From: an uncultured Candidatus Saccharibacteria bacterium
GTDB taxonomy: Bacteria > Patescibacteriota > Minisyncoccia > Minisyncoccales > GWA2-38-27
Assembly (NCBI GenBank): GCA_964506305.1
Contig: CAZDKD010000001.1
Span: 8,031-72,030, forward strand
Direction: 5' to 3'
DNA: 64,000 nt
How positions within the stretch are numbered: position 1 is the first letter of the stretch; each line of letters opens with the position of its first letter. The notes below the pieces were generated by a model. The model saw only the letters and a program-made list of their open reading frames with translations, ran no database searches and was not told the DNA's origin. Positions 17,919-31,982 of this stretch are shown one piece after another. The position numbers and the translations under genes are program-made.

Positions 17919-19313
17919 ATGAAAAATCTTTGGATACTTTCAGAAGAACGGCCGAAGAAAGAAGTTATTGGTCAGATTGTAAGAAAGTTTGCTTCAGATA
18001 ATGATCTAAAAATTAAAATCAAGGATATTATAATATTACCCGTTTTTTCTGATAAAAAATTTGTATTTAGATATATTATTAAAGGCATAAATTGTAAAAA
18101 GATAAAAGATATATTTGTTAAATTGGTTAGTGGTAAATCAAGTTTCATCGATTTTTTATTATTCTATCAAGAGAAAGAACCCGATAAAGATTCTAATCCT
18201 TTGTATGCAATAGAAGAAACAAAAACGGATGATTCAGAATCGAGAAACACAGGTGTATACCAAAGATGTAGTAAATTTGTTTTTATTGATTTTTATTATC
18301 CAAAAATAAAAAAGCTAATGCTTTACAATTTACAAATACCTCAAAAAATAAAGGCGACAGAAACAAATATTTTTGGCACCAGGATGCTTTTAACTATTGG
18401 TGTAGAAATTTTAGGCAAGAAACTTGACGATTCTGTTATGAAACCCTTTAGAAGTATTGATGAACTTATCAAGTTTAAAGATTCGATGCGCATGCCTCCA
18501 AAAGGAAATGTGCCGATTAAAATCAAGAAAGAAAAAAATAAATTTTTCATCTCTGGTAAATTATATAAAGCAGGTGGCCTAAGCCATGATCCTAATATTG
18601 GAGCATTAACAATAATTGCGCTTTGCATTAGAAAATGGGAAAAGAAAAAGGATATTGTTATTACTAATCATGGCTTAAAACAAAATCACATTGGAAGAAA
18701 AAATAAATTTATTATTATCGCGAACAAACTTAACATAAAACTGCAAGGATTAAAATTGCCAAAAGCAAAAATAGAACAGCCCTATTGGCACTATGAAGTT
18801 AATGGTGAGAAAGTGGCCTCTATTTTTGTGCATTTAGCAGTCGAGGCATTTACTAATGGACAAATTATTTATGAAAATCATGCTGGCTGTGAAAGAGGTT
18901 ATTTTATTGATAAAAAATTAGGACCAATTGCGATAAAAAAATATAAAAAAGGAAAAAGATCCAAGTATAAGGCAGGCAATAAAAATGCGATTATTTATTT
19001 ACCAGATCTTATCATTTGTGATCCAAAAAGAAATGAGATTGTTAATATCGAAGGCAAAACTTATAGTAAACGCAAACAAGGTATTAGTGAATTAAAAAAT
19101 TACACCTATATCGAGAAAGAATATATAAAGCCGTCTTATCGATCATCAAGGATAAAAAGAGTTGTTGTAGTTTTTGGAGGGGGAAAGAATAAAATTAAAG
19201 AAAATAAAATAGCCTTTATGCTGAACGATAAAGGCGAGATTATCTTAGGTAAAAATCCTCCTGAAATAATAAAAGAAGCAGTAAAAAAACTATTTTCGTT
19301 GCAGAATAAATAG
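17919..19313 (+). CDS. Lys-rich PD-(D/E)XK-motif protein, candidate restriction endonuclease convergent on two adenine methyltransferases
   Basis: Textbook motif IIYLPDLIICDPKRNEIVNIEGK (PD-x14-E-G-K); no other recognisable domain. Confidence 0.35.
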   Translation: MKNLWILSEERPKKEVIGQIVRKFASDNDLKIKIKDIIILPVFSDKKFVFRYIIKGINCKKIKDIFVKLVSGKSSFIDFLLFYQEKEPDKDSNPLYAIEETKTDDSESRNTGVYQRCSKFVFIDFYYPKIKKLMLYNLQIPQKIKATETNIFGTRMLLTIGVEILGKKLDDSVMKPFRSIDELIKFKDSMRMPPKGNVPIKIKKEKNKFFISGKLYKAGGLSHDPNIGALTIIALCIRKWEKKKDIVITNHGLKQNHIGRKNKFIIIANKLNIKLQGLKLPKAKIEQPYWHYEVNGEKVASIFVHLAVEAFTNGQIIYENHAGCERGYFIDKKLGPIAIKKYKKGKRSKYKAGNKNAIIYLPDLIICDPKRNEIVNIEGKTYSKRKQGISELKNYTYIEKEYIKPSYRSSRIKRVVVVFGGGKNKIKENKIAFMLNDKGEIILGKNPPEIIKEAVKKLFSLQNK

Positions 19314-20354
19314 TTGTTCTTTTACCGCTTTTTTATGTTTTGAATCACCGTTATTGTTACTTTTAAATCTTGGATAATCTATTTCGATCACTTTTAGATT
19401 TCCGTATTTATTTAATACGGAAACTATTTTTTTCTGAGGCATGATGCCTTCTGAATTGTAGCTTAGAATTAGGAATTTATACCTTGCGCTTCTTGCAATC
19501 CTGTTGAGGGCAGAAAGTGCAGACTCTGGATTGCAGAATTCTGATTTTTGCTTATTATAATTCCTCATTCCTGTTTTGCCCTTGATTTTTGGATTATCAT
19601 ATTTTGCGATCGTTTCCAGCAGATGATAATTACTAGCATATTGCCTGTTATTGTAGGGAGGGTCTATATATAGAATATCAACATCCAAATTATCTATAAG
19701 CTCCATGCTATCTTTATTAAAGACAGAGTGTTTTTTGTTGCTTTTATATATTCTTATGGGTCTTATTTTGAATTTTTTTAAGGCTCTTGGGTCATAATTT
19801 TTTAGAAAAGCAGCATAAACACCGGATATATTTGCATAAAAGGGGACGCTTCCTATTAAGGATGCAAGCAATATAAAATATTCATTTTTATCAATCAGTT
19901 TTGTTTTTTTCCATTCTTTTATTTGTGTTCTTATCGCGTCAATTTTCATTCCATTCTTAGCAGTAAAATATTTTCTTTGAAATTTGTCATTCTTTGTTCC
20001 TTCTTCTGTATAGTTTTTATAAATAAAGCCCTTAGTTTCCTTTAGGTTATTCAAATAATCTTGAACTAATTCTAATGACGAAACAAAAAAGCTATTTTTT
20101 GGTAGTGGGACAATCTTATCTAATAATCTTTGGAAGCTTGGCTCTTTATTGTTTTGGATATATGCCTTTTGTAAAATATAAGAGAAATACAAAACATCAG
20201 AGGAAATGATCCTGAATCCTTTTTGCTTAAAAAATCTGCCGACACTACTTGTTCCTGAAAAAAAATCGCAGAATATTCCTTCTGTTGTGCCGGTTGATAT
20301 TACTGCTTGATATATATAATCAAGCAGTTTTTCTTTACTGCCTATAAACCTCAT
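19290..20354 (-). CDS. D12-class N6-adenine DNA methyltransferase (second MTase of the pair)
   Basis: N-terminus MRFIGSKEKLLDYI, SAM-binding region FCDFFSGTSSVG, catalytic ILYIDPPYNN. Confidence 0.75.
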   Translation of the reverse strand: MRFIGSKEKLLDYIYQAVISTGTTEGIFCDFFSGTSSVGRFFKQKGFRIISSDVLYFSYILQKAYIQNNKEPSFQRLLDKIVPLPKNSFFVSSLELVQDYLNNLKETKGFIYKNYTEEGTKNDKFQRKYFTAKNGMKIDAIRTQIKEWKKTKLIDKNEYFILLASLIGSVPFYANISGVYAAFLKNYDPRALKKFKIRPIRIYKSNKKHSVFNKDSMELIDNLDVDILYIDPPYNNRQYASNYHLLETIAKYDNPKIKGKTGMRNYNKQKSEFCNPESALSALNRIARSARYKFLILSYNSEGIMPQKKIVSVLNKYGNLKVIEIDYPRFKSNNNGDSKHKKAVKEQLFILQRK

Positions 20355-20355
20355 T

Positions 20356-21924
20356 TTAATAATTTGTGATAAGTAGTTCTGAAACTTTTCCTCGTTTGTC
20401 TTTTTTACAATTTAGAGACCTATTTGATAACATTTCATGTATTTTATAGTTGTGATATAAATTATTTATAAATTTGCAATCTGAATTAGATAGCATTATC
20501 TTAACTTTCTTTTTAGTAAGTTTATCTATAGCTTTTTTTAGTCTTTCTTGGTCTTCTTTATAGAATTTTTCTTTTGTATATCTATTAAAGTCTGAGTATT
20601 TTGAAACAGGGAAATAGGGGGGATCTAGATAGATAAAATCATCTTTATTAGCTTCTTCTAGAATTTTTTCGAAGTCTGCGCATTTTATACTTGTATTTTC
20701 TAAAACTTGGCTTACTTTTTGGATATTGTCCTTATCACAAATTAATCTATTGAGAGAACTCCCAATAGGCACATTAAATTGTCCTTGTTTATTAACCCTA
20801 TATAAAGCATTGAATCCTGTTTGGTTCAAATAAATCATTCTTGCTGCTATCTCGGCGTTATTTAATTTATCAAAGATATTTATTTCTCTATCTAGGTTAC
20901 GAACTTTTATATGGAGATCTTTTGAATGTCTTATTTTTAGTCCTCTTAATAGTTTAGCCACCCGTTCCGGATTATCTCTAACGCCCTGATAAGTTTTAAT
21001 CAATTCAGCGTTATTATCTCTCAAAACTGCTTTAGATGGTTTTAGATAAAAAAACATCGCCCCTCCTCCAAGAAAGGGCTCGTAATAAGTTTTGAACTTT
21101 TTAGGTAGGAATTTTTTATATTGAGAAATCATTTCTCTTTTTCCTCCTACCCATTGAAGAAATGGTTTCGCTTCCCTGTTTGCAGATGAACCGTTTAAGC
21201 GCTTTGCGTTTTTAGTAAATGGAGAGGCATTAATTATTTTAGTAAGCGGACTATTTTCTTTTAACTGTGATTCAAGGCTTCTTATAATTTCTACAACAAT
21301 TCCTTTTACTTCTACTTCCTTTCTGAAAATGGGGAACAGTGTTGGATTCGCCGGTTGTAATCTTATCCTGTTTTTTTCGTGATATATTTTTTTAAGAGTT
21401 GCCTCGTTGTCATCAATAATAGCTACTATTGTTTGTCCATCTTCAGCTGTTTGTTGTTCTTGGATTATAACTATATCTCCGTCAAAGATACCTTCTCCAA
21501 TCATGCTATCGCCTTCTACTCTTAAGGCGTAATGTTTAGTATGATTGTTAATTTGTTTTCTGGGAACGGTAATTACTTCATCTGGAATTTCAAAAGTCTC
21601 AAATGGTTTACCGGCTGCTATTATTCCAAGTAGGGGAATTTCTACTAGACCTGCAGGTTTTTTATTATCTGATATTTCTATTGATCGGGCGTGATAGTTG
21701 GTTTTATTTAGATATCCTTTGGATTTTAGTGATTCAATATGCTGGTGGACAGTGGATACAGAAGACAATTTAAAATGCTCCTTTATTTCCTCTAGGGAAG
21801 GAGCATAATCATTTTTTTTAATGAATTTTGTAATATAATCTAGTATTTGTTTTTGCCTTTTTGTTAACATAATTTGGGTTAAGAGTTTTCCACAACCTTG
21901 ACGGGTTGACCTAGTTTTCCCCAT
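20356..21924 (-). CDS. LexA repressor (wHTH + S24 peptidase) fused in-frame to a Dam-family N6-adenine DNA methyltransferase
   Basis: LexA: DBD LTKRQKQILDYI...SSVSTVHQHIESLKSKGYL, cleavage site GIIAAGKPF, Ser EGDSMIG, Lys EATLKKIY; Dam: LQWVGGK, EPFLGGGAMFF, LNQTGFNALYRVNKQGQFNVPIG, FIYLDPPYFP, IMLSNSD; single 522-aa ORF, stop overlaps start of next MTase. Confidence 0.75.
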   Translation of the reverse strand: MGKTRSTRQGCGKLLTQIMLTKRQKQILDYITKFIKKNDYAPSLEEIKEHFKLSSVSTVHQHIESLKSKGYLNKTNYHARSIEISDNKKPAGLVEIPLLGIIAAGKPFETFEIPDEVITVPRKQINNHTKHYALRVEGDSMIGEGIFDGDIVIIQEQQTAEDGQTIVAIIDDNEATLKKIYHEKNRIRLQPANPTLFPIFRKEVEVKGIVVEIIRSLESQLKENSPLTKIINASPFTKNAKRLNGSSANREAKPFLQWVGGKREMISQYKKFLPKKFKTYYEPFLGGGAMFFYLKPSKAVLRDNNAELIKTYQGVRDNPERVAKLLRGLKIRHSKDLHIKVRNLDREINIFDKLNNAEIAARMIYLNQTGFNALYRVNKQGQFNVPIGSSLNRLICDKDNIQKVSQVLENTSIKCADFEKILEEANKDDFIYLDPPYFPVSKYSDFNRYTKEKFYKEDQERLKKAIDKLTKKKVKIMLSNSDCKFINNLYHNYKIHEMLSNRSLNCKKDKRGKVSELLITNY

Positions 21925-24065: not shown

Positions 24066-24152
24066 AACGCAAAACTAAACGCAAAACTAAACTCGGTTTA
24101 GTTTTAAGAGTGAGAAGTCGTTGACGACAGTCGTCAACGAAAATCAAAAAAT
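24066..24152. repeat. composite palindromic repeat R1 copy a: (ACGCAAAACTAA)x2-ACTCGGTTTAGTTTTAAGAGTGAGAAG-TCGTTGACGACAGTCGTCAACGA-AAATCAAAAAATT
   Basis: Two perfect hairpins (AAACTAAAC-tcg-GTTTAGTTT; TCGTTGACGAC-a-GTCGTCAACGA); copies at 25385, 28465(partial), 29465, 31378(partial). Confidence 0.6.
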
Positions 24153-24164
24153 TGATTGAGAAAT

Positions 24165-24230
24165 AAGAACCCCCCGCTTAGCGGGGGAACCTTAATTCGT
24201 TAATGTATAAATATATAATCTTGAATTAAA
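24165..24230 (+). promoter_or_regulatory. promoter cassette R3 copy b, interrupted by an inserted GC hairpin CCCCCGCTTAGCGGGGG
   Basis: aagaac|cccccgcttagcggggg|aaccttaattcgttaatgtataaatatataatcttgaattaaa. Confidence 0.45.
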
Positions 24231-24234
24231 ATTT

Positions 24235-24441
24235 ATGTTTAAAAAGTTAGTAATTTTATTAAACATTATTGTTTTCGGTTTATTTGTTGTACAATTCTTT
24301 ACTACCTCAGGTATTGTTTTCTTTTTAACTGCAAACAGAGCGGGCTTAATAGGAAAAATCTCAGATTTGTTCTATATGGCTTTACTTTTTTTTACTCCAC
24401 TATTAAGTATTATTTTGCTTTTGAAATATAAATCTAAATAA
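24235..24441 (+). CDS. small membrane protein
   Basis: Two TM helices, C-terminal KYKSK. Confidence 0.35.
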   Translation: MFKKLVILLNIIVFGLFVVQFFTTSGIVFFLTANRAGLIGKISDLFYMALLFFTPLLSIILLLKYKSK

Positions 24442-24543
24442 GAAAATAGGACCAATTCTATTTTTTAAAAAACCCACCCCGCCAGGGCGGGGCAAGCAAG
24501 CAATTTTAGCCTCGCGTCAAACGCGGGTAGTCAAAGTATTTTA

Positions 24544-24999
24544 ATGATTATCAATTTTAATGAATTAAAAGTTTTTATAACCGAGGCAAGGAAAAATACT
24601 TATGCTGGAGATGGAAAACGAACGGAAAATCCTTTTTTAGCAAGTTCGGTACAGCTTGAATATAAGAAAGGAGAGTATTTTTACCGGGATATCTATTTTG
24701 GAGGGGAGAAGAATTTTGTTGGCCAAGAAGTTGTTTATCAAAGCGATAAACCAGTTTGGAGTATGGTTTACTGCGGCTCTGCGGAGCCACCAGAAGTCAC
24801 TGGTTTTCTTAAGAAATCACTATTGAATTTATCTGAAAAATGCCGATTTGGTGGGAAGTGCGAATTTGAAGAAAATGATTTAAAATATAAAGACGAGGGG
24901 GAAGGAACAATAGAACGATTTGATGGAGAAGAAAAGATTTTTATAAAAGAGAAAAATGTTTATAAATTAAAATATCAAGGAGGTTTAATTTTAAAATAA
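24544..24999 (+). CDS. hypothetical protein
   Basis: Preceded by GC hairpin elements; no recognisable motif. Confidence 0.4.
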   Translation: MIINFNELKVFITEARKNTYAGDGKRTENPFLASSVQLEYKKGEYFYRDIYFGGEKNFVGQEVVYQSDKPVWSMVYCGSAEPPEVTGFLKKSLLNLSEKCRFGGKCEFEENDLKYKDEGEGTIERFDGEEKIFIKEKNVYKLKYQGGLILK

Positions 25000-25043
25000 A
25001 CTCCCCGCCGAGGCGGGGCGGGCAAAGATAATTAAAATTTTTT

Positions 25044-25379
25044 ATGGAAAATATTAAACTTCTACCAAAAACTAAATTAGGCAAATGGTCGGTTGGATTG
25101 ATAATCGCTATGTTCTCATTATTTTTTCTTGGCATGTCATTTTTTCTAAAAGTATATACATCTGTTTCAGCAGGAGAAACTATTTTAAAAGATATTGTTG
25201 CAAGGCCGTGTTTAGCGTTATCGATGCTTTCTGGCTTTGCTTCCGGTATCATTGCTTTTATCACGGGGCTTACTGCGATTATAAAAAATAAAGAAAGGTC
25301 TATTTTGGTGTTTATCGCAACAATTATTGGTGCCTTGCTTATTTTATTCCTTACGGCAGAAATAACATCCCCGCATTAA
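25044..25379 (+). CDS. membrane protein, paralog 1 (96% nt identity to 29119-29457)
   Basis: 3 TM helices; MENIKLLPKTKLGKWSVGLIIAMFSLFFLGMSFF... Confidence 0.5.
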   Translation: MENIKLLPKTKLGKWSVGLIIAMFSLFFLGMSFFLKVYTSVSAGETILKDIVARPCLALSMLSGFASGIIAFITGLTAIIKNKERSILVFIATIIGALLILFLTAEITSPH

Positions 25380-25384
25380 ACAAT

Positions 25385-25458
25385 CACAAAACTAAACTCG
25401 GTTTAGTTTTAAGAGTGAGAAGTCGTTGACGACAGTCGTCAACGAAAATCAAAAAATT
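25385..25458. repeat. composite palindromic repeat R1 copy b
   Basis: aaaactaaactcggtttagttttaagagtgagaagtcgttgacgacagtcgtcaacgaaaatcaaaaaatt identical to copy a core. Confidence 0.6.
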
Positions 25459-25662
25459 AATAAAGATTATAGAATGTAAAAAAGAAGAAAATATAAAAGA
25501 TTGCCCATGTACTTATGATTGCGACAAAAAGGGAATGTGTTGCGAATGTGTAAAATATCATTTAGAAAGAAGAGAGCTGCCGGCTTGCTTTTTTTCTAAG
25601 GAAGCGGAAAAGACCTTTGACCGTTCAATTGAAAAATTCATAGAAGATCAAAAAAGTTTATG
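25430..25662 (+). CDS. cysteine-rich small domain protein (CPCxYxC...CCxCVxYH...PAC), no canonical in-frame start codon; stop overlaps mscS start (ATGA)
   Basis: Frame open from 25430; ...KDCPCTYDCDKKGMCCECVKYHLERRELPACFF...; only in-frame ATG is internal (MCCECV...); R1 repeat sits exactly where the start should be. Confidence 0.35.
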
Positions 25663-26703
25663 AATACAGTAAAAGTTTTAATTTCAAATGAATATTTTCA
25701 GGCCTTGTTGATTGTGATTGGGGCAGTGATTTTGGCTAAGGTTTTGCATTTCATATTAAAAGGATATATTCAAAAGTTAACCGAAAGAACAAAGAGCGAT
25801 ATTGATAACGCCATATTGAAAATTATCACAAAGCCCCTCTATATTTTTGTTATTGTCTTAGGTATTTGGATTGGGCTGAGACTTTTATCTTGTATTAAAC
25901 CTTATCTTTTTTGGATAGACGGACTCTTTTTTGTGCTTTCTGTTTTTATAGCTTCTCTTGTTATCTCCAGAATTCTTGCTCTTTTTATCACTCGTTGGCT
26001 AAAAGTTCAGAGACGATTTGAAAAGACGCCTCAATTGATTGCTAAGATTGTCAGCGTGATTGTTTATCTTGTTGCAATTTTGATAATTTTAGACCGCCTT
26101 AACGTTGAGATAACTCCTTTAATTGCCAGCTTGGGTCTTGGGGGAGTGGCTATTGCTTTGGCTCTTCAGAGCACTCTCTCAAATCTTTTTGCCGGGCTTC
26201 ATATTATATCTGACCGGCCTATAAACATTGGCGATTATATTGAGATTGAAGGAGGACTTTCCGGCTATGTGGAAGATATTGGCTGGAGGTCAACAAGAAT
26301 AAGAACCAGAGTTAATAATTTTGTTATTGTTCCTAATTCAAAATTGGCTGAAAGTATAATCGTTAATCTTTCAACTCCCCAGAAAGAAACAACAATAGTG
26401 GTTGAATGCGGGGTTAGTTATGAGTCAGACCTTGAAAAAGCAGAGAGAGTAACAATAGAGGCAGCAAGAGAGATTCAAGAGAATATCAAGGGAGCAGTAA
26501 AGGGCTTTGAACCACTTTTTCGATATCACACATTCGGGGATTCAAATATTAGTTTTTCGATATATCTTAGGGTTGAAAAACCAATTGATAAATTTTTAGT
26601 GACGCACAAATTTATAAAAGCTCTCAAGAAAAGATACGACCAAGAAGGCATTGAAATTTCCTGGCCAGTTCTAAAGATTTATTATCCGAAGCAAAGCGAC
26701 TAA
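25660..26703 (+). CDS. mscS: small-conductance mechanosensitive channel
   Basis: 3 TM + GLGGVAIALALQSTLSNLFAGLHIISDRPINIGDYIEIEG...VIVPNSKL MscS beta-domain pattern. Confidence 0.8.
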   Translation: MNTVKVLISNEYFQALLIVIGAVILAKVLHFILKGYIQKLTERTKSDIDNAILKIITKPLYIFVIVLGIWIGLRLLSCIKPYLFWIDGLFFVLSVFIASLVISRILALFITRWLKVQRRFEKTPQLIAKIVSVIVYLVAILIILDRLNVEITPLIASLGLGGVAIALALQSTLSNLFAGLHIISDRPINIGDYIEIEGGLSGYVEDIGWRSTRIRTRVNNFVIVPNSKLAESIIVNLSTPQKETTIVVECGVSYESDLEKAERVTIEAAREIQENIKGAVKGFEPLFRYHTFGDSNISFSIYLRVEKPIDKFLVTHKFIKALKKRYDQEGIEISWPVLKIYYPKQSD

Positions 26704-26766
26704 ATCCTACCAAAAAATCACCCCTTGGGCAATTTTTTGATAGAATAGAAAAAACTAAAGAAAATT

Positions 26767-28464
26767 ATGACTCAACAAGAAGCATTAGATATATTAAAAC
26801 TAGGGCATAATATCTATTTAACGGGTCCGCCGGGAAGCGGGAAAACTTTTTTGTTAAATAAATATATTGATTATTTGAAAAAAAATCACAGAGGGGTGGC
26901 AATAACTGCCTCTACTGGAATTGCTGCCACCCATATGCAGGGAGTTACTATTCATTCTTGGTCAGGTATGGGCATTAAAGAAAAACTTACCGAGAGAGAT
27001 CTCGGAAAACTTCTGAAGAAATCTTATCTTAGGAAAAGATTTAGAAATACCGGGGTGCTTATTATTGATGAGATATCAATGCTTCATGCTTTTCAGTTTG
27101 ATTTAATAAATTTTATCTGTCAGGCATTTAAAAATAGCGCAAAGCCTTTTGGCGGAATGCAGGTGGTATGTTCGGGTGATTTTTTCCAGCTTCCTCCTGT
27201 GCAGAAAGGAGAAAAGCCGAAATTTGTCACCGAATCAAAGGCATGGGAAAATGTGAATATGAAAATATGTTATCTTGAAGAACAGTATCGTCAAGAGGAA
27301 AATGGCGCATTACTCACCTTGTTAAATCATATTCGAAATAATGAGATTAATGAGGCAAAGGAGTTATTAGCCGACATAGACAGCGAAGAAAAAGTATGTT
27401 CAACCAAGCTTTATACTCATAATGTGGATGTTGCAGCTATTAATAATTCTGAATTAGTCAAAATAGACGGGGAGGAGTTTGGGTATGATATGCGCTCCGA
27501 GGGCAATAAAGATATTGTGGTTATGCTCAAGAAGGGTTGTTTGGCGCCCGAAAAGTTGATTCTTAAAAAAAAGGCCAAAGTAATGTTTGTAAAAAATAAT
27601 TTCGATAAGGGCTATGTAAATGGCACTCTTGGCGAGGTAATTGGTTTTGATGTTGATGGGTTGCCTGTTATAAAAATTACTGGGGGCGAACATATTGTTG
27701 CCAGACCTGCAAGCTGGACTATTGAGGAAGATGATGTTGTTAAAGCTGAAATTAGTCAAATTCCTCTTCGTCTGGCCTGGGCCATAACGGTGCATAAAAG
27801 CCAGGGCATGAATCTTGATGCTGCTGAAATTAATCTTTCTAAATCATTTGTTGAAGGAATGGGGTACGTGGCCCTTTCCAGGCTGCGTTCGCTTGCAGGG
27901 TTGAAACTTATGGGAATAAATGAGTTAGCTCTTACGGTCAATCAAGAGGTTTCGGAGTTAGATAGGGTATTAAAACAGATGTCGCAGGAAGTGACTGAAT
28001 ATTTTAAAAAAATGAAAATATGGGAGAAAAATAAGAAACAAAGACAATTTTTAGATTTTCTCCCCAGAGTTGAACCCGGCAAAAGAGATAAAAAAGAAAA
28101 AAAGAGGCTTGGGCCAACTTATGAAGAGACCAAAATTCTAGTTCGTCAAAAGCTTCCGATTAAAGAAATTGCCGAACATAGATGTTTGAGCGAAGAAACT
28201 ATTATAAGCCATTTAGAGAAATTAAATGCTCGCAAAGAAGAAATTGATTTAGGATATTTACAATTACCGGAAGAACGTTTTAAGAAAATTAAGATGGTCT
28301 TTCAGCAAACCGGTGATTTTAAATTATCTCCGGTTAAACAGATACTTGGTAAAGATTTTTCTTTTCAAGAGATAAGATTAACTCGTTTATTTATAAAAAA
28401 AGATAAAGAAGTTGAAAAATTTGCTGAAAAGGAAGAAGTTTCACAATTAAAAAAATACAAATAA
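26767..28464 (+). CDS. PIF1/RecD-like ATP-dependent DNA helicase
   Basis: Walker A LTGPPGSGKTFLL, ITASTGIAAT, LIIDEISML, GDFFQLPPV, ITVHKSQG; C-terminal HTH-like tail. Confidence 0.75.
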   Translation: MTQQEALDILKLGHNIYLTGPPGSGKTFLLNKYIDYLKKNHRGVAITASTGIAATHMQGVTIHSWSGMGIKEKLTERDLGKLLKKSYLRKRFRNTGVLIIDEISMLHAFQFDLINFICQAFKNSAKPFGGMQVVCSGDFFQLPPVQKGEKPKFVTESKAWENVNMKICYLEEQYRQEENGALLTLLNHIRNNEINEAKELLADIDSEEKVCSTKLYTHNVDVAAINNSELVKIDGEEFGYDMRSEGNKDIVVMLKKGCLAPEKLILKKKAKVMFVKNNFDKGYVNGTLGEVIGFDVDGLPVIKITGGEHIVARPASWTIEEDDVVKAEISQIPLRLAWAITVHKSQGMNLDAAEINLSKSFVEGMGYVALSRLRSLAGLKLMGINELALTVNQEVSELDRVLKQMSQEVTEYFKKMKIWEKNKKQRQFLDFLPRVEPGKRDKKEKKRLGPTYEETKILVRQKLPIKEIAEHRCLSEETIISHLEKLNARKEEIDLGYLQLPEERFKKIKMVFQQTGDFKLSPVKQILGKDFSFQEIRLTRLFIKKDKEVEKFAEKEEVSQLKKYK

Positions 28465-28494
28465 CGCAAAACTAAACTCGGTTTAGTTTTAAAA
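28465..28494. repeat. R1 partial copy c (first palindrome only)
   Basis: acgcaaaactaaactcggtttagttttaaaa. Confidence 0.5.
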
Positions 28495-28497
28495 TAT

Positions 28498-28833
28498 ATG
28501 AACTTTAAAACACTTTTTCTTGCTCATACTCCTGATGCAGAACCAGAAAAGCACAGGTGTGAGATTGAAACATCTAAATACAAGCTCTTTGTGGTATTGG
28601 TTGGAAATCAATCTCAAGCTCTTGAAGTATCTAAAAAGTTTGCTGAAGAAGAAGGAATTCATTCTATTCTTCTCTGTCCTGGATTTACTCACAAAGATAT
28701 TGCAGAGATATCAGAAGCAGTTGGAGAAAATGTTGGTGTTTCTGTAGCCAGAGGAGATGGCCCGAGTAATAAAATTGCTATGAGGGCGATGAGAAGAGCA
28801 GGCTGGTTTCCGGAAAAAAAGGAGAAGGAGTAA
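28498..28833 (+). CDS. hypothetical protein
   Basis: Soluble 111-aa ORF; no recognisable motif. Confidence 0.4.
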   Translation: MNFKTLFLAHTPDAEPEKHRCEIETSKYKLFVVLVGNQSQALEVSKKFAEEEGIHSILLCPGFTHKDIAEISEAVGENVGVSVARGDGPSNKIAMRAMRRAGWFPEKKEKE

Positions 28834-28881
28834 TTTTAGCCCCGCGTCAAGCGCAGGCAGGAGTACAGTATTGATGGAGGG

Positions 28882-29094
28882 TTGATAGACAACTTGTTGA
28901 CAACTTTAAATTTGGGAGATATAACAAAGTTGTCAACTAATGATTTTAAGGGTGTTAAAACCATCGGCCAGGCTTTTGCCGATGAAGTTTTTCGTGTTTG
29001 GCAGAATCACCACCAGAATATTGAGATTATTTATAAAAATGCCGACAAGAATGTTTTATTTATGATTAAAAAAGCCTTGAGTGTAAATAAGTGA
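28882..29094 (+). CDS. hypothetical small protein
   Basis: ORF only. Confidence 0.3.
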   Translation: MIDNLLTTLNLGDITKLSTNDFKGVKTIGQAFADEVFRVWQNHHQNIEIIYKNADKNVLFMIKKALSVNK

Positions 29095-29109
29095 ATAATT
29101 TAAATTTTA

Positions 29110-29457
29110 ATGGAAAATTTCATGAAAAATATTAAACTTCTACCAAAAACTAAATTAGGCAAATGGTCGGTTGGATTGATAATCGCTATGTTCTCATTAT
29201 TTTTTCTTGGCATGTCATTTTTTCTAAAAGTATATACATCTGTTTCAGCAGGAGAAACTATTTTAAAAGATATTGTTGCAAGGCCGTGTTTAGCGTTATC
29301 GATGCTTTCTGGCTTTGCTTCCGGTATCATTGCTTTTGTCACGGGGCTTACTGCGATTATAAGAAAAAAAGAAAGGTCTATTTTGGTGTTTATTTCAACA
29401 ATTATTGGTGCGTTGCTTATTTGGTTTCTTGCGGCACAAATAATGTCCCCGTGTTAA
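29110..29457 (+). CDS. membrane protein, paralog 2 of 25044 gene
   Basis: Near-identical protein (A->V, K->R, I->S changes only). Confidence 0.5.
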   Translation: MENFMKNIKLLPKTKLGKWSVGLIIAMFSLFFLGMSFFLKVYTSVSAGETILKDIVARPCLALSMLSGFASGIIAFVTGLTAIIRKKERSILVFISTIIGALLIWFLAAQIMSPC

Positions 29458-29464
29458 ATTATTA

Positions 29465-29524
29465 ACGCAAAACTAAACTCGGTTTAGTTTTAAGATTGAG
29501 AAGTCGTTGATGACTGTCGCCAAA
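29465..29524. repeat. R1 copy d (second palindrome degenerated: GTCGTTGATGACTGTCGCC)
   Basis: acgcaaaactaaactcggtttagttttaagattgagaagtcgttgatgactgtcgcc. Confidence 0.55.
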
Positions 29525-29528
29525 ATTT

Positions 29529-29765
29529 ATGGAAAGGAAAATTTGTAAATGGTATGAGGTTTGTCCAATGAAGAGATTTTACGAGGAAGAAAAATTAGAT
29601 AAAAAATGGGTTGAGAATTATTGTTTCCGTAATGGAGAGAATTGTAAGAGATTTGAAATGGAAGAAAAGGGAATTTCTCATCCAGATAATATGCTTCCTA
29701 ATGGCGAGATTGATGATAGTTTAAAACAATATGGGAACAATAAAAATATACTGCCAGAATTGTAG
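29529..29765 (+). CDS. small Cys-rich protein, paralog of 62391 gene (CKWY..CP...KW.E.YC...C.RF.MEE.G..HPDNM.P.G)
   Basis: MERKICKWYEVCPMKRF...NCKRFEMEEKGISHPDNMLPNG vs MACKWYNLCPLREL...NCKRFQMEEEGKFHPDNMMPDG. Confidence 0.45.
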   Translation: MERKICKWYEVCPMKRFYEEEKLDKKWVENYCFRNGENCKRFEMEEKGISHPDNMLPNGEIDDSLKQYGNNKNILPEL

Positions 29766-29958
29766 AGCTCTTCTTTATAAATATCAAAAAGACAAACCGG
29801 GCCATTTGATTAAATGCTACAAGAATAAGATTTTAAAAGATTATACTGAAGAAAATTTAAAATGTCCCAAATGCGGACAGCGGTTTGCCAGAGAGGCACT
29901 GATTCACGGGAAACCGGCTAATAAAATTATTCAGGGTAAAGTTTTTGTAAAAAAATAA
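29731..29958 (+). CDS. small zinc-ribbon protein
   Basis: YCQNC...CPKCG four-Cys pattern; overlaps previous gene by 35 nt in another frame. Confidence 0.35.
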   Translation: MGTIKIYCQNCRALLYKYQKDKPGHLIKCYKNKILKDYTEENLKCPKCGQRFAREALIHGKPANKIIQGKVFVKK

Positions 29959-29960
29959 AA

Positions 29961-30347
29961 ATGGCGCAAAATAATAATCGGAGAAAGAAAAATATTTTTT
30001 TGAGTTTTCAGAATGCCCAGAGGGGGTTATGGAAAGTTCTTGTTCGAGAGCCGGCATTTAAATATATGGCAGCAGCGGCCCTGCTGGTTGTTGGAGCAAT
30101 GCTTTATTTCCCGACGAGCAGAACGGAAAAAGCCGTACTCTTAGTAACGATTTTTTCCGTGCTTGGATTAGAAATGATTAATTCCATTATGGAGCGTTTT
30201 CTGGACTTTTTGCAGCCAAGTTATGACCCGCGTGTTAAAATAATAAAAGACTTGCTTTCAGGTTTTGTATTCTTGGTTGTTTTAGGCACAGTGATTATTG
30301 GCATTCTTATTTTTTGGCCCTATCTAAAAACAGTTATCAATTTTTAA
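29961..30347 (+). CDS. dgkA: diacylglycerol/undecaprenol kinase
   Basis: LGLEMINSIMERFLDFLQPSYDPRVKIIKDLLSGFVFLVV matches DgkA core (E..NSAIE...D...H...KD..S.AV). Confidence 0.7.
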   Translation: MAQNNNRRKKNIFLSFQNAQRGLWKVLVREPAFKYMAAAALLVVGAMLYFPTSRTEKAVLLVTIFSVLGLEMINSIMERFLDFLQPSYDPRVKIIKDLLSGFVFLVVLGTVIIGILIFWPYLKTVINF

Positions 30348-31096
30348 ACCCCGTTAGAGATTATAAAGACAAAAAGAAAGCAAAAAGAGAGCGAATCTCT
30401 AACGGGGTAAAAATAGAATGGCTAAAAACAAAGCAATTTTAGCCCACCCCGCCCTGGCGGGGGGGGCAGGCAAAGATAGAAAAATCTCCCTTCGGGCAGT
30501 TTTTTTGTTGACAAATATGAATAATTAGTATATAATATAAGTAGTAGGTTAAAAGAATAAATAACGATTTTTCAATGAAAGGAGTGAATATGAATAGTCA
30601 AGATTTTAGGAATGCTTGGGAAGATTATGTTTTCTGTCACGATCAAAAAAAGAAAGAAGCCGCTTTATAACGAGTAGTAGGGCTCGCAACCACAATCAAC
30701 CAGTGGTTACTGATTCAGGAGTCTACTAAAAATAGAGACGATATCCAAAAAAAGGCTAAAGAACAACTGAGTAAGTTATTTTCTCAAAGAAAGATATCGC
30801 CATCTCTCCTTGCGAAGTTTGCAGAACAGACCGCTAAATAAAACAAAATTAAAGTCCACAGAGATTACTCCGTGGACTTTTTTATTGACACGAGCGAGGG
30901 AAAAATGAAAGTTTACTTTCATTTTAACCGAGCGACGTGTTAATATAGTAAGGAGGGTGTAGCCCTCCTCCTACTCTATTCCTCGGCGCGTATTCTCGCG
31001 CGTTATGCTGAGATGATGAAAAATCGCCCTTTGAGCGATTTTTTGGTAGAATGAAATATAAAGGTCATTAATTAAAATTAAGAAAGGAATTAAAAT

Positions 31097-31378
31097 ATGT
31101 TATCACAAATACCTATTAATCTTGAGAAAATAAAAAAAGAGGATTTAGATAAAGAGATATTAAGAATTGGAATGATAGCTGAATTGGATGCTGTTTCTCT
31201 TTACGAACAATTAGCCGCAATGACCGAGAACGAAACTTTTAAAAAAGTTCTTTTGGATATAGCCAAAGAAGAAAAAACTCACATGGGGGAATTCCAATCC
31301 TTATTACTTCAAATAGATTCGGAGCAAGCAAGCGAGTTGGAAGAAGGCAAAAAAGAAGTTGAAGAATTAACAAATTAA
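31097..31378 (+). CDS. ferritin-like/rubrerythrin-like half-domain protein
   Basis: ELDAVSLYEQLA ... AKEEKTHMGEF : E-x-x-H di-iron-type ligand spacing in helical protein. Confidence 0.4.
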   Translation: MLSQIPINLEKIKKEDLDKEILRIGMIAELDAVSLYEQLAAMTENETFKKVLLDIAKEEKTHMGEFQSLLLQIDSEQASELEEGKKEVEELTN

Positions 31379-31406
31379 CGTAAGACTAAACTCGGTTTAG
31401 TTAAAC
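31378..31406. repeat. R1 partial copy e
   Basis: acgtaagactaaactcggtttagttaaac. Confidence 0.45.
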
Positions 31407-31442
31407 TATGCCCTGCCGCCCTGGCGGCAGGGCAGGGTAAAG

Positions 31443-31871: not shown

Positions 31872-31982
31872 AAGAACTAGACAACCTTAGCTGAAAACAA
31901 AAGGTCGGACCCCAATGGTACCCCGCCAAGGCGGGGACTACGGGCCAAGGAAAATAATAATCAATTAAATTAATTTAAGAAT

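Follow-up and report, generated by a model that had tools for sequence, protein, structure and literature searches.

Putative REP/BIME-like hairpin modules in the gene spacers of a rearrangement-prone accessory island of a CPR bacterium

Introduction

What are the short palindromic repeats that recur between the genes of a small genomic region in a bacterium of the candidate phyla radiation (CPR, Patescibacteria), and how are they related to the duplicated gene that lies among them? The stretch of DNA analysed here (the window) comprises 64,000 nucleotides of contig CAZDKD010000001.1 (assembly GCA_964506305.1, positions 8,031 to 72,030 of the forward strand), deposited under an uncultured Candidatus Saccharibacteria bacterium. 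It has 35% G+C and nearly all of its genes lie on the same strand. The repeats consist of two hairpin modules, H1 and H2, accompanied by a separate GC-rich palindrome family, H3. [quoted passage not shown]

Little has been reported on families of short palindromic repeats in CPR/Patescibacteria. The genomes of these bacteria are small, and the usual view is that they contain few repeats. With a probability of roughly 0.55, we read H1, H2 and H3 as lineage-specific hairpin modules similar to repetitive extragenic palindromic (REP) sequences and bacterial interspersed mosaic elements (BIMEs). They would occupy 3′-untranslated regions (3′-UTRs) and intercistronic spacers of a rearrangement-prone CPR accessory island that contains an old pair of paralogous genes.

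Results

Sequence, copies and folding of the hairpin modules

The H1 hairpin, AAAACTAAAC-TCG-GTTTAGTTTT, is an A/T-rich, perfect 23-nt palindrome with a 10-bp stem and a 3-nt loop, and is part of a unit of about 32 nt, TAACGCAAAACTAAAC-TCG-GTTTAGTTTTAA. Across the whole window its 19-mer core, AACTAAACTCGGTTTAGTT, occurs exactly at 24085, 25390, 28470 and 29471 and with one mismatch at 31384. No site exists besides these five, all of which are on the + strand; 0.04 are expected in shuffled sequence. These are the five copies originally predicted; a sixth, decayed H1 at 31872-31898, whose counterpart in a related species is an intact H1, had been missed. H2, TCGTTGACGACAGTCGTCAACGA, is also a 23-nt palindrome, with a 10-11-bp stem and a G+C content above that of H1. 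It is intact at 24118 and 25423 only (chance expectation 0), and a third, decayed H2 follows the fourth H1 at 29500-29519. Hence the earlier description of a modular element with two perfect, self-complementary hairpins was borne out, as were the decayed second hairpin of the copy near 29465 and a tandem 12-mer (AACGCAAAACTA twice, at 24066-24089).

H3 has the form CCCGC-N-GCGGG (spacer N3-6) and is present in 10 copies, against 0.03 expected. Its sites extend from 6604 to 31935 (e.g. 8042, 8075, 13741, 15902, 24173, 24478, 25004, 30448 and 31922) and fall in the first half of the window only. The window thus holds six H1, three H2 and ten H3 copies. All copies of H1 and H2 are intergenic and confined to a 7.8-kb cluster at 24.0-31.9 kb, the other 56 kb of the window being free of them, and the H1 copies share one orientation. 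Modules were seen as H1 alone, as H1-linker-H2-tail, as H1 with H3, and as H1-H2 with H3. The individual copies are as follows.

24066-24153, + strand: composite copy 1, with the tandem 12-mer at 24066-24089, H1 at 24083-24105, a purine-rich linker, H2 at 24118-24140 and an A-rich tail; next come H3 (GC-rich hairpin) at 24171-24187 and, downstream, a gene for a 68-aa protein, and the same H1-H2/68-aa-gene adjacency is found in a relative (contig L001)
25383-25458, + strand: composite copy 2, starting 4 nt past the stop codon of gene R1, with H1 at 25388-25410, H2 at 25423-25445 and an A-rich tail
28462-28493, + strand: H1 copy 3, a lone H1 whose TAA doubles as the Pif1 stop codon; its end lies 8 nt before the ATG of the DUF6506 gene
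29463-29523, + strand: composite copy 4, with intact H1 at 29469-29491, decayed H2 at 29500-29519 and the tail deleted; a 78-aa Cys-rich gene begins at 29529
31376-31406, + strand: H1 copy 5, with one mismatch and a shortened stem; its own TAA is the stop codon of a rubrerythrin-like gene, and a GC-rich hairpin follows at 31409-31434
31872-31898, + strand: H1 copy 6, decayed (AAGAACTAGACAACCTTAGCTGAAAAC), directly past the stop codon of the HIT gene; its orthologue is the intact H1 upstream of the SPFH gene of the relative

In five of the six window copies H1 starts 1-11 nt past the upstream stop codon (copy 1, 70 nt), and in the relative the DUF6506 reading frame stops within H1. The composites fold far more stably than shuffled sequences do (z = -5 to -5.8). 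Among five composite copies from two species, pairing is kept in 95% of the cells of the comparison; the H1 stem has one compensatory double change (TAAAC/GTTTA to TAGAC/GTCTA), and the H2 stem has another (G-C to A-U). Moreover, the helices contain G-U wobbles, with which pairing is possible in + strand RNA alone. As the modules closely follow stop codons on the coding strand, they would be transcribed as 3′-UTR or intercistronic hairpins. H1 would most likely act there as a leaky terminator, or as a 3′-end hairpin that protects or stabilises the upstream mRNA; its end 8 nt before the DUF6506 ATG implies that it must allow co-transcription.

Slipped or tandem half-hairpin duplications were also observed at H1 in relatives, on L135 (ENA scaffold BAEC19-1) at 619-671 and on L003 at about 900-960. 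They read AGACTCGGTCTACTT|AGACTCGGTTTAGTTTT and AAAACTAAAT|AAAACTAAAC and are analogous to the 12-nt duplication at 24066-24089. Contigs L003, L009 and L012 carry paired H1 copies, inverted and a few nt apart.

Perfect 23-bp palindromes could alternatively be operators, in which case dimeric DNA-binding proteins would bind H1, H2 or both and jointly control the downstream island genes. The palindromes stand upstream of gene starts as well as past stops, half-sites are tandemly duplicated at 24066-24089, in L003 and in L135, and 2 kb upstream there is a gene for a fusion protein with a LexA domain. However, the compensatory changes preserve pairing and not sequence, H1 ends 8 nt before the DUF6506 ATG with no room for a promoter, and the downstream genes are functionally unrelated; in other genomes, too, no common family was visible by eye among the genes downstream of H1. 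Moreover, a paper that cites Sanchez-Osuna et al. 2017 lists this Patescibacteria study with LexA proteins whose recognition motif is a direct repeat and not a palindrome (PMC7739468). We hold the operator explanation to be very improbable. H1 as an operator of LexA in particular was rejected, given this grouping with direct-repeat motifs and the genes downstream of H1, which are not SOS genes.

Comparison with terminators and other short motifs

Eleven unique hairpins of the window have an A-run/stem/T-run layout, with folding energies of -10.7 to -22.6 kcal/mol and 5-8 T. H1 has the same layout at -6.4 kcal/mol, about half the stability of these terminator-like hairpins. H2 reaches -13.0 kcal/mol and has no T-tail, an A-run standing next to it. 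Because H1 is weak, with a T-run of 4 nt inside its stem, and an A-run comes after H2, neither has the form of a canonical terminator, and a terminator consensus scan of the window called neither of them. Rfam and tRNA scans gave nothing. A micro-ORF (open reading frame) starting from a TTG inside H2 was considered and dropped, since the palindrome itself dictates it and its length shows no conservation.

H3 copies within 23.5-32.5 kb are preceded by A-runs on the coding strand, so that H3 is terminator-like for the opposite strand only. Its presence at orthologous spacers differs between the window and the relative L001, which points to mosaic spacers; the motif ATTTTAGCC together with H3 is likewise inserted or absent at spacers between the two. 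This motif adjoins GC-rich hairpins at 24503, 28833 and 30436 and also occurs in spacers of L001. Its five copies in the window are weakly above chance (2.2 expected).

Synteny with a relative

The island of the window has the gene order PD-(D/E)XK_3 – (H1H2, H3) – 68-aa membrane protein – DUF5680 – R1 – (H1H2) – DUF6485 – MscS – Pif1 with HTH_40 – (H1) – DUF6506 – truncated DUF4325 – R2 – (H1, decayed H2) – 78-aa Cys-rich – Zn-ribbon – DAG kinase, and, at its end, rubrerythrin-like – (H1, H3) – HIT – (decayed H1, H3) – SPFH. In the relative the order is DUF4325 – (variant H1′H2′) – R – (H1H2) – 68-aa – GNAT – HD – (H1) – HAD – DUF6506 – (H1) – SPFH. The adjacencies DUF4325-R, R-H1H2, H1H2-68aa and H1-SPFH are common to both, and all else differs.

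Breakpoints were aligned base by base at two H1 sites. Homology of DUF6506 between the window and L001 ends at ...TGGTTTCCRGAA, just before GCGCAAAAC, and the 3′ end of the DUF6506 gene of the relative is replaced by H1; homology of the SPFH leader resumes just past the H1 T-run. In addition, the DUF4325-R spacer is filled by the variant H1′H2′ in L001 and empty in the window. Since synteny with the relative breaks at the H1 copies examined, these alignments indicate that the island was reshuffled with breakpoints next to the repeats. We infer that the repeats themselves provided the homology for recombination. Copies may have recombined with each other, or the process may have been site-specific, and no recombinase supports the second route: among the window proteins, about 30 searched with Pfam and the remaining ORFs read by eye, there is no transposase, integrase or other recombinase, including tyrosine recombinases and intI integrases, and no RAYT gene.

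The same presence/absence pattern bears on the original prediction of a MITE-like repeat, a non-autonomous composite H1-H2 transposon that was mobilised in trans and inserted at several gene ends. Multiple near-identical copies, the spacers filled in L001 and empty in the window (DUF4325-R) or replaced (the DUF6506 3′ end), and absence of the element from more distant R homologues would all be expected of such a transposon. Its ends (AACGCAAAAC... and ...AAAATCAAAAAATT), however, are not complementary, so terminal inverted repeats are lacking and both palindromes are internal and independent. Target-site analysis found no duplication in the flanks of three composite and three H1-only copies. 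All copies have one orientation within 7.8 kb, and two of the three composite copies are accounted for by the old R duplication described below. Lacking terminal inverted repeats, target-site duplications and, among the ORFs checked, a transposase, the MITE-like interpretation is not supported, and we regard it as unlikely.

Age of the duplicated gene and gene conversion

R encodes a 111-aa predicted membrane protein in two copies.

25044-25379, + strand: R1, with the first copy of the duplicated block at 25040-25442; left uncalled by gene callers
29122-29457, + strand: R2, the second 111-aa copy, with an ORF also open from 29110 and the second copy of the block at 29118-29523

The duplicated block consists of the R gene and H1-H2. 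The predicted duplication of about 410 bp is real, yet its 406 nt, which include one 3-nt indel, are 93.35% identical, not 96%, and the identity is very uneven. The genes alone are 95.2% identical, with 99% in the first 230 nt and 86.8% (13% divergence) in the last 106 nt. In the 64 alignment columns past the stop codon (H1, linker and start of H2) 54 of 61 positions agree (88.5%), and the H1 and linker stretch has one differing position. Both copies stand on single contigs of several independent metagenome assemblies (e.g. the 13.8-kb L013), which excludes assembly collapse or expansion as the source of the duplication.

A single R gene was seen on L001, and R2 is its orthologue. Identity to this gene over the last 106 nt is 95.3% for R2 and 85.8% for R1. 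Because R2 is closer to the R gene of the relative than to R1 at the 3′ end, R1 and R2 are, by this comparison, old paralogues whose split predates the split from the relative. Upstream neighbours are also kept in relatives (DUF4325-R2 in L001, DUF5680-R1 in L135), and H1-type hairpins follow both orthologues, which suggests an old R-plus-hairpin unit. Distant R homologues (L070-L076 and L134) have no downstream H1 or H2. The R protein has no Pfam match and 168 database homologues, the named ones coming from CPR/Patescibacteria records.

These observations also decide the case of a composite transposon, which was rejected: the flanking repeat is a membrane-protein gene conserved in CPR bacteria, without a Pfam transposase domain and not an insertion sequence, and its copies, 13% divergent at the 3′ ends, are older than the species split. 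What stands of the composite-element-like arrangement is that direct repeats bracket about 3.7 kb and recombine, as mosaic alleles show; the flanks are old gene paralogues.

The mosaic alleles appear in a haplotype table of 27 R copies on 22 sequences, in which a few loci re-sample the same contig. Canonical haplotypes are GTAGGA/AAT for R1 and AAGTAG/GGA for R2. R1 of the window is a mosaic with an R1 flank, an R2 middle and an R1 3′ end. It carries R2 alleles at six sites (25189-25232) at which four complete and three partial R1 copies on other contigs have R1 alleles. A second mosaic, the R2 of L015, has two R1 alleles (GT). The two mosaics come from independent assemblies, and their alleles switch over 38 nt (window R1, from the last R2-type site to R1 alleles) and about 10 nt (L015 R2). 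Such distances are far shorter than k = 127, so that mis-pairing in the assembly graph is unable to create the mosaics. Gene conversion is thus the simplest explanation for the 99%-identical 5′ 230 nt, and the mosaic alleles support exchange of sequence between R1 and R2 by this process. By this evidence, the R gene with H1-H2 was duplicated long ago, and its paralogues now exchange sequence.

Alternative junction contigs

With U (25460-29117) as the unit between the R copies and A and B as flanks, the chromosomal order is A-R1-U-R2-B. This order was assembled in five other samples, and four contigs have alternative junctions. L016 measures 4,205 bp (4,078 + 127); its two ends overlap exactly by 127 nt, and it closes into a 4,078-bp cycle in the order R – H1H2 – DUF6485 – MscS – Pif1 – H1 – DUF6506 – DUF4325. 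L017, from another sample, has the same U-end/R/U-start junction. L066 carries the reciprocal deletion junction (DUF5680 – hybrid R – decayed H1H2 – 78-aa gene), and L068 is a 1,305-bp cycle closed via two H1H2 copies. The circle junction comes from JGI metagenomes 3300031331 and 3300031379, the deletion junction from 3300031351 and the 1,305-bp cycle from 3300031651, and the samples with chromosomal order include 3300031355 and 3300031643. In the two samples with the circle junction, the downstream contigs begin inside R.

The junctions match the products of crossing-over between direct repeats (a deletion plus a circle, or a tandem duplication), and equally match an alternative decomposition of the assembly graph. 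Thus the four contigs are either true recombination products or mis-assemblies induced by repeats. As real population variants, they would mean that the 4,078-bp unit is excised as a circle or tandemly amplified in some cells. The exact overlap of L016 with the same junction in another sample, the reciprocal A-R-B junction of L066 and the in vivo recombination of R1 and R2 recorded by the mosaic alleles favour this possibility. A conservative assembler normally halts at an unresolved repeat without joining across it, and the joined contigs are unlike this behaviour. Nevertheless, the k-mer content of A-R-B plus a circle equals that of A-R1-U-R2-B, with crossovers in a shared stretch of 141-228 nt, longer than k = 127. 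The five samples with chromosomal order also speak against variants, as does the content of the 4,078-bp unit, which includes one truncated gene and has the Pif1-like helicase as its sole replication or recombination gene. False circular contigs that arise from long direct repeats are, moreover, a recognised concern (bioRxiv 10.1101/143420). We therefore treat real variants as a serious possibility, rated somewhat below even odds.

A bolder explanation makes H1 the crossover site of a recombinase, at which modules ending in H1 would be cut out as circles and inserted again, similar to integron attC sites or pdif modules. Each module does end in H1 in the same orientation with a stop codon overlapping the site, breakpoints with the relative coincide with H1, and the cycle of L068 is closed via two H1-H2 copies. 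The attC core consensus is RYYYAAC/GTTRRRY, from which the H1 arms CTAAAC/GTTTAG differ by one mismatch each. Yet H1 is a perfect 23-nt palindrome, much shorter than attC and without extrahelical bases, and no integrase or recombinase was found among the window ORFs checked. Cycles between H1-only copies (units of 3,080 bp and 1,001 bp) were not seen; the cycles that were found close through the longest stretches of homology (141-228 nt for R and 72 nt for H1H2), as in homologous recombination or graph loops. Hence site-specific recombination at H1 is improbable. There is a similarly small chance that H1 belongs to a hairpin-recognising CPR recombination system that shuffles multi-gene modules, with the 4,078-bp and 1,305-bp cycles as genuine excised circles; if so, the larger circle would carry a Pif1-like helicase and a MscS channel.

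Contig ends were also noted at the repeats. Four Logan contigs (L019-L022) end at 28491, one base past H1 copy 3, and two (L061 and L062) begin at 29466, where the unit of H1 copy 4 has its left edge, so that the 31-nt identical H1 units break assemblies made with k = 31. Among JGI contigs, some stop inside R and others form cycles. An IMG/VR contig (L093) of exactly 4,078 bp is unrelated, its length being a coincidence.

H1 in other sequences

Loci with the H1 19-mer number 12 in genome contigs, 32 in metagenome contigs and 3 in viral contigs. Several H1 copies were found only in the species of the window, in the relative (L001/L003/L046/L050, with at least one H1 site on another contig, L003), in L135 and perhaps in two metagenome-assembled genomes (L006+L012 and L009). 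In other CPR contigs, exact 19-mers often form the tips of palindromes that are longer and terminator-like. A/T-rich terminator hairpins number in the millions, so that most single matches are near chance, and we take matches outside the lineage to be mostly convergent or chance hairpins.

H1 as a motif conserved across phyla was rejected, several matches being coding coincidences (transketolase TKPSLVIAHT; non-CPR genes). A scan of viral contigs for H1 with a free loop gave 22 matches with essentially random loops, a chance-like number, and was also set aside. The scan of the viral collection for the 17-mer linker gave 36 matches, about the number expected by chance, and the collection has no relative of the Pif1 gene and no copy of H2. 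DnaA-box-like nonamers (TTATCCACA / TGTGGATAA) flank or overlap the H1 19-mer in the unrelated CPR contigs L008, L009, L012, L030, L048 and L051; flanks like TTATCCACA are absent at the H1 copies of the window. TIGR arrays are tandem arrays and inapplicable to these repeats.

Gene content of the island

The segment of about 3.7 kb between the R copies contains the Cys-rich gene, mscS and the Pif1-like helicase gene, as originally predicted, and in addition DUF6506 and a 5′-truncated DUF4325.

25469-25663, + strand: DUF6485 Cys-rich gene, with ATA where an ATG start is expected and a stop codon overlapping the MscS start (ATGA)
25660-26703, + strand: MscS-type mechanosensitive channel, within the bracketed segment
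26767-28464, + strand: Pif1-family helicase with a C-terminal HTH_40, within the bracketed segment; the identical protein is on 11 metagenome contigs
28498-28833, + strand: DUF6506; the 3′ end of the gene in the relative runs into H1
28882-29094, + strand: DUF4325 remnant, equal to residues 72-147 of a protein of at least 148 aa in the relative; 5′-truncated, and adjoining the ATTTTAGCC plus GC-hairpin element at 28833-28860

All aligned DUF6485 homologues begin with MECKKEEN. At 25469-25471 the window and all eight population contigs checked have ATA (ATA-GAA-TGT), against ATG-GAG-TGT in the closest homologue. The missing ATG had been noticed before, with the repeat said to sit exactly there; however, the repeat has its last base at 25458, and the codon follows 11 nt downstream. 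As the repeat does not overlie the codon, the start loss is, on the alignment, a G-to-A point change at 25471 that was not caused by the repeat. A short leader of DUF6485 remains recognisable, and the ATGA overlap predicts translational coupling to the MscS gene. DUF6485 would be either an ATA-initiated gene or a recent pseudogene.

Homologues of the small island proteins are labelled Kerfeldbacteria, Minisyncoccia and Patescibacteria, and a metagenome-assembled genome labelled Candidatus Saccharibacteria is the nearest public relative of the locus, which places the source in the CPR/Patescibacteria. Just upstream of the island, a cluster resembling restriction-modification (R-M) systems includes a LexA-S24-methyltransferase fusion, about 2 kb away. 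It may be an R-M-like module or a module of a self-cleaving regulator and a methylase.

20356-21924, - strand: unusual fusion of a LexA DNA-binding domain, an S24 peptidase and a D12 adenine methyltransferase
19290-20354, - strand, and 17919-19313, + strand: neighbours of the fusion, a second D12 methyltransferase and a 464-aa ORF without a Pfam match

Discussion

H1 and H2 are short (20-40 nt) extragenic stem-loop palindromes and are arranged in mosaics with other short motifs, as in REP/BIME families. Reportedly, Shyamala et al. 1990 found REP sequences to be join-points of tandem duplications. Functions as mRNA 3′-end stabilisers, attenuators and recombination join-points are described for REP/BIME (PMC2817692, PMC3116915, PMC3184786). 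Several results weigh against placing the modules of the window beside them. Six H1 copies were seen, in a 7.8-kb cluster and with no RAYT gene in 64 kb, and REP families usually exceed 100 copies per genome and come with a RAYT (Y1 transposase) gene (PMC2817692). Covariation support is thin, two double changes in five sequences being equalled by 41 of 500 shuffles. H1 is weak with a 4-nt T-run inside its stem, H2 is followed by an A-run, and an RNA-level role of H1 and H2 is one that we infer. Furthermore, the shared orientation could simply reflect local duplication among co-directional genes.

Our results leave current views of bacterial genome function unchanged. If the modules are REP/BIME-like, the locus means that CPR bacteria carry REP-like mosaic spacers and that synteny breakpoints of an accessory island fall at such repeats. 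It also provides a 0.4-kb pair of paralogous repeats that exchanges sequence in a natural population. For metagenomics, these repeats break or mis-join assemblies, and "circular" contigs of 4 kb should not be taken for plasmids or viruses without read-level support.

Compared with REP/BIME of Enterobacteria and the REPINs of Pseudomonas, the modules share short extragenic palindromes past stop codons or between cistrons, mosaic arrangement and presence that varies among close relatives. They differ in that H1 is A/T-rich and not G/C-rich, is a perfect palindrome and occurs in six copies within 7.8 kb, and in that the 64-kb window has no 5′ GTAG-type signature, no inverted REP doublets and no RAYT gene. 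Correia, RUP, BOX and ERIC elements and MITEs are likewise non-coding modular repeats of about 30-90 nt that may provide a stop codon or change the 3′ end of a gene, as in DUF6506 of the relative. In contrast, the hairpins here are independent, without terminal inverted repeats, target-site duplication or, in the 64-kb window, a cognate insertion sequence.

Integron attC sites and Xer dif modules resemble the island in having a hairpin site at the 3′ end of each module, one orientation, shuffled order and breakpoints at the site. However, attC sites are 57-141 nt long with extrahelical bases (R''-L''...L'-R') and dif has an 11-6-11 structure, whereas H1 is a 23-nt perfect palindrome; the modules here consist of several genes and gene fragments, and neither an integrase nor a Xer gene is nearby. 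Paralogous direct repeats, which undergo RecA-dependent deletion and amplification, agree with the R pair in the two 0.4-kb repeats, the homogenised tract, the mosaic alleles and the junction contigs for a deletion and for a circle or tandem duplication. Set beside direct repeats of this kind under gene conversion and unequal crossing-over, the R pair has nothing unusual.

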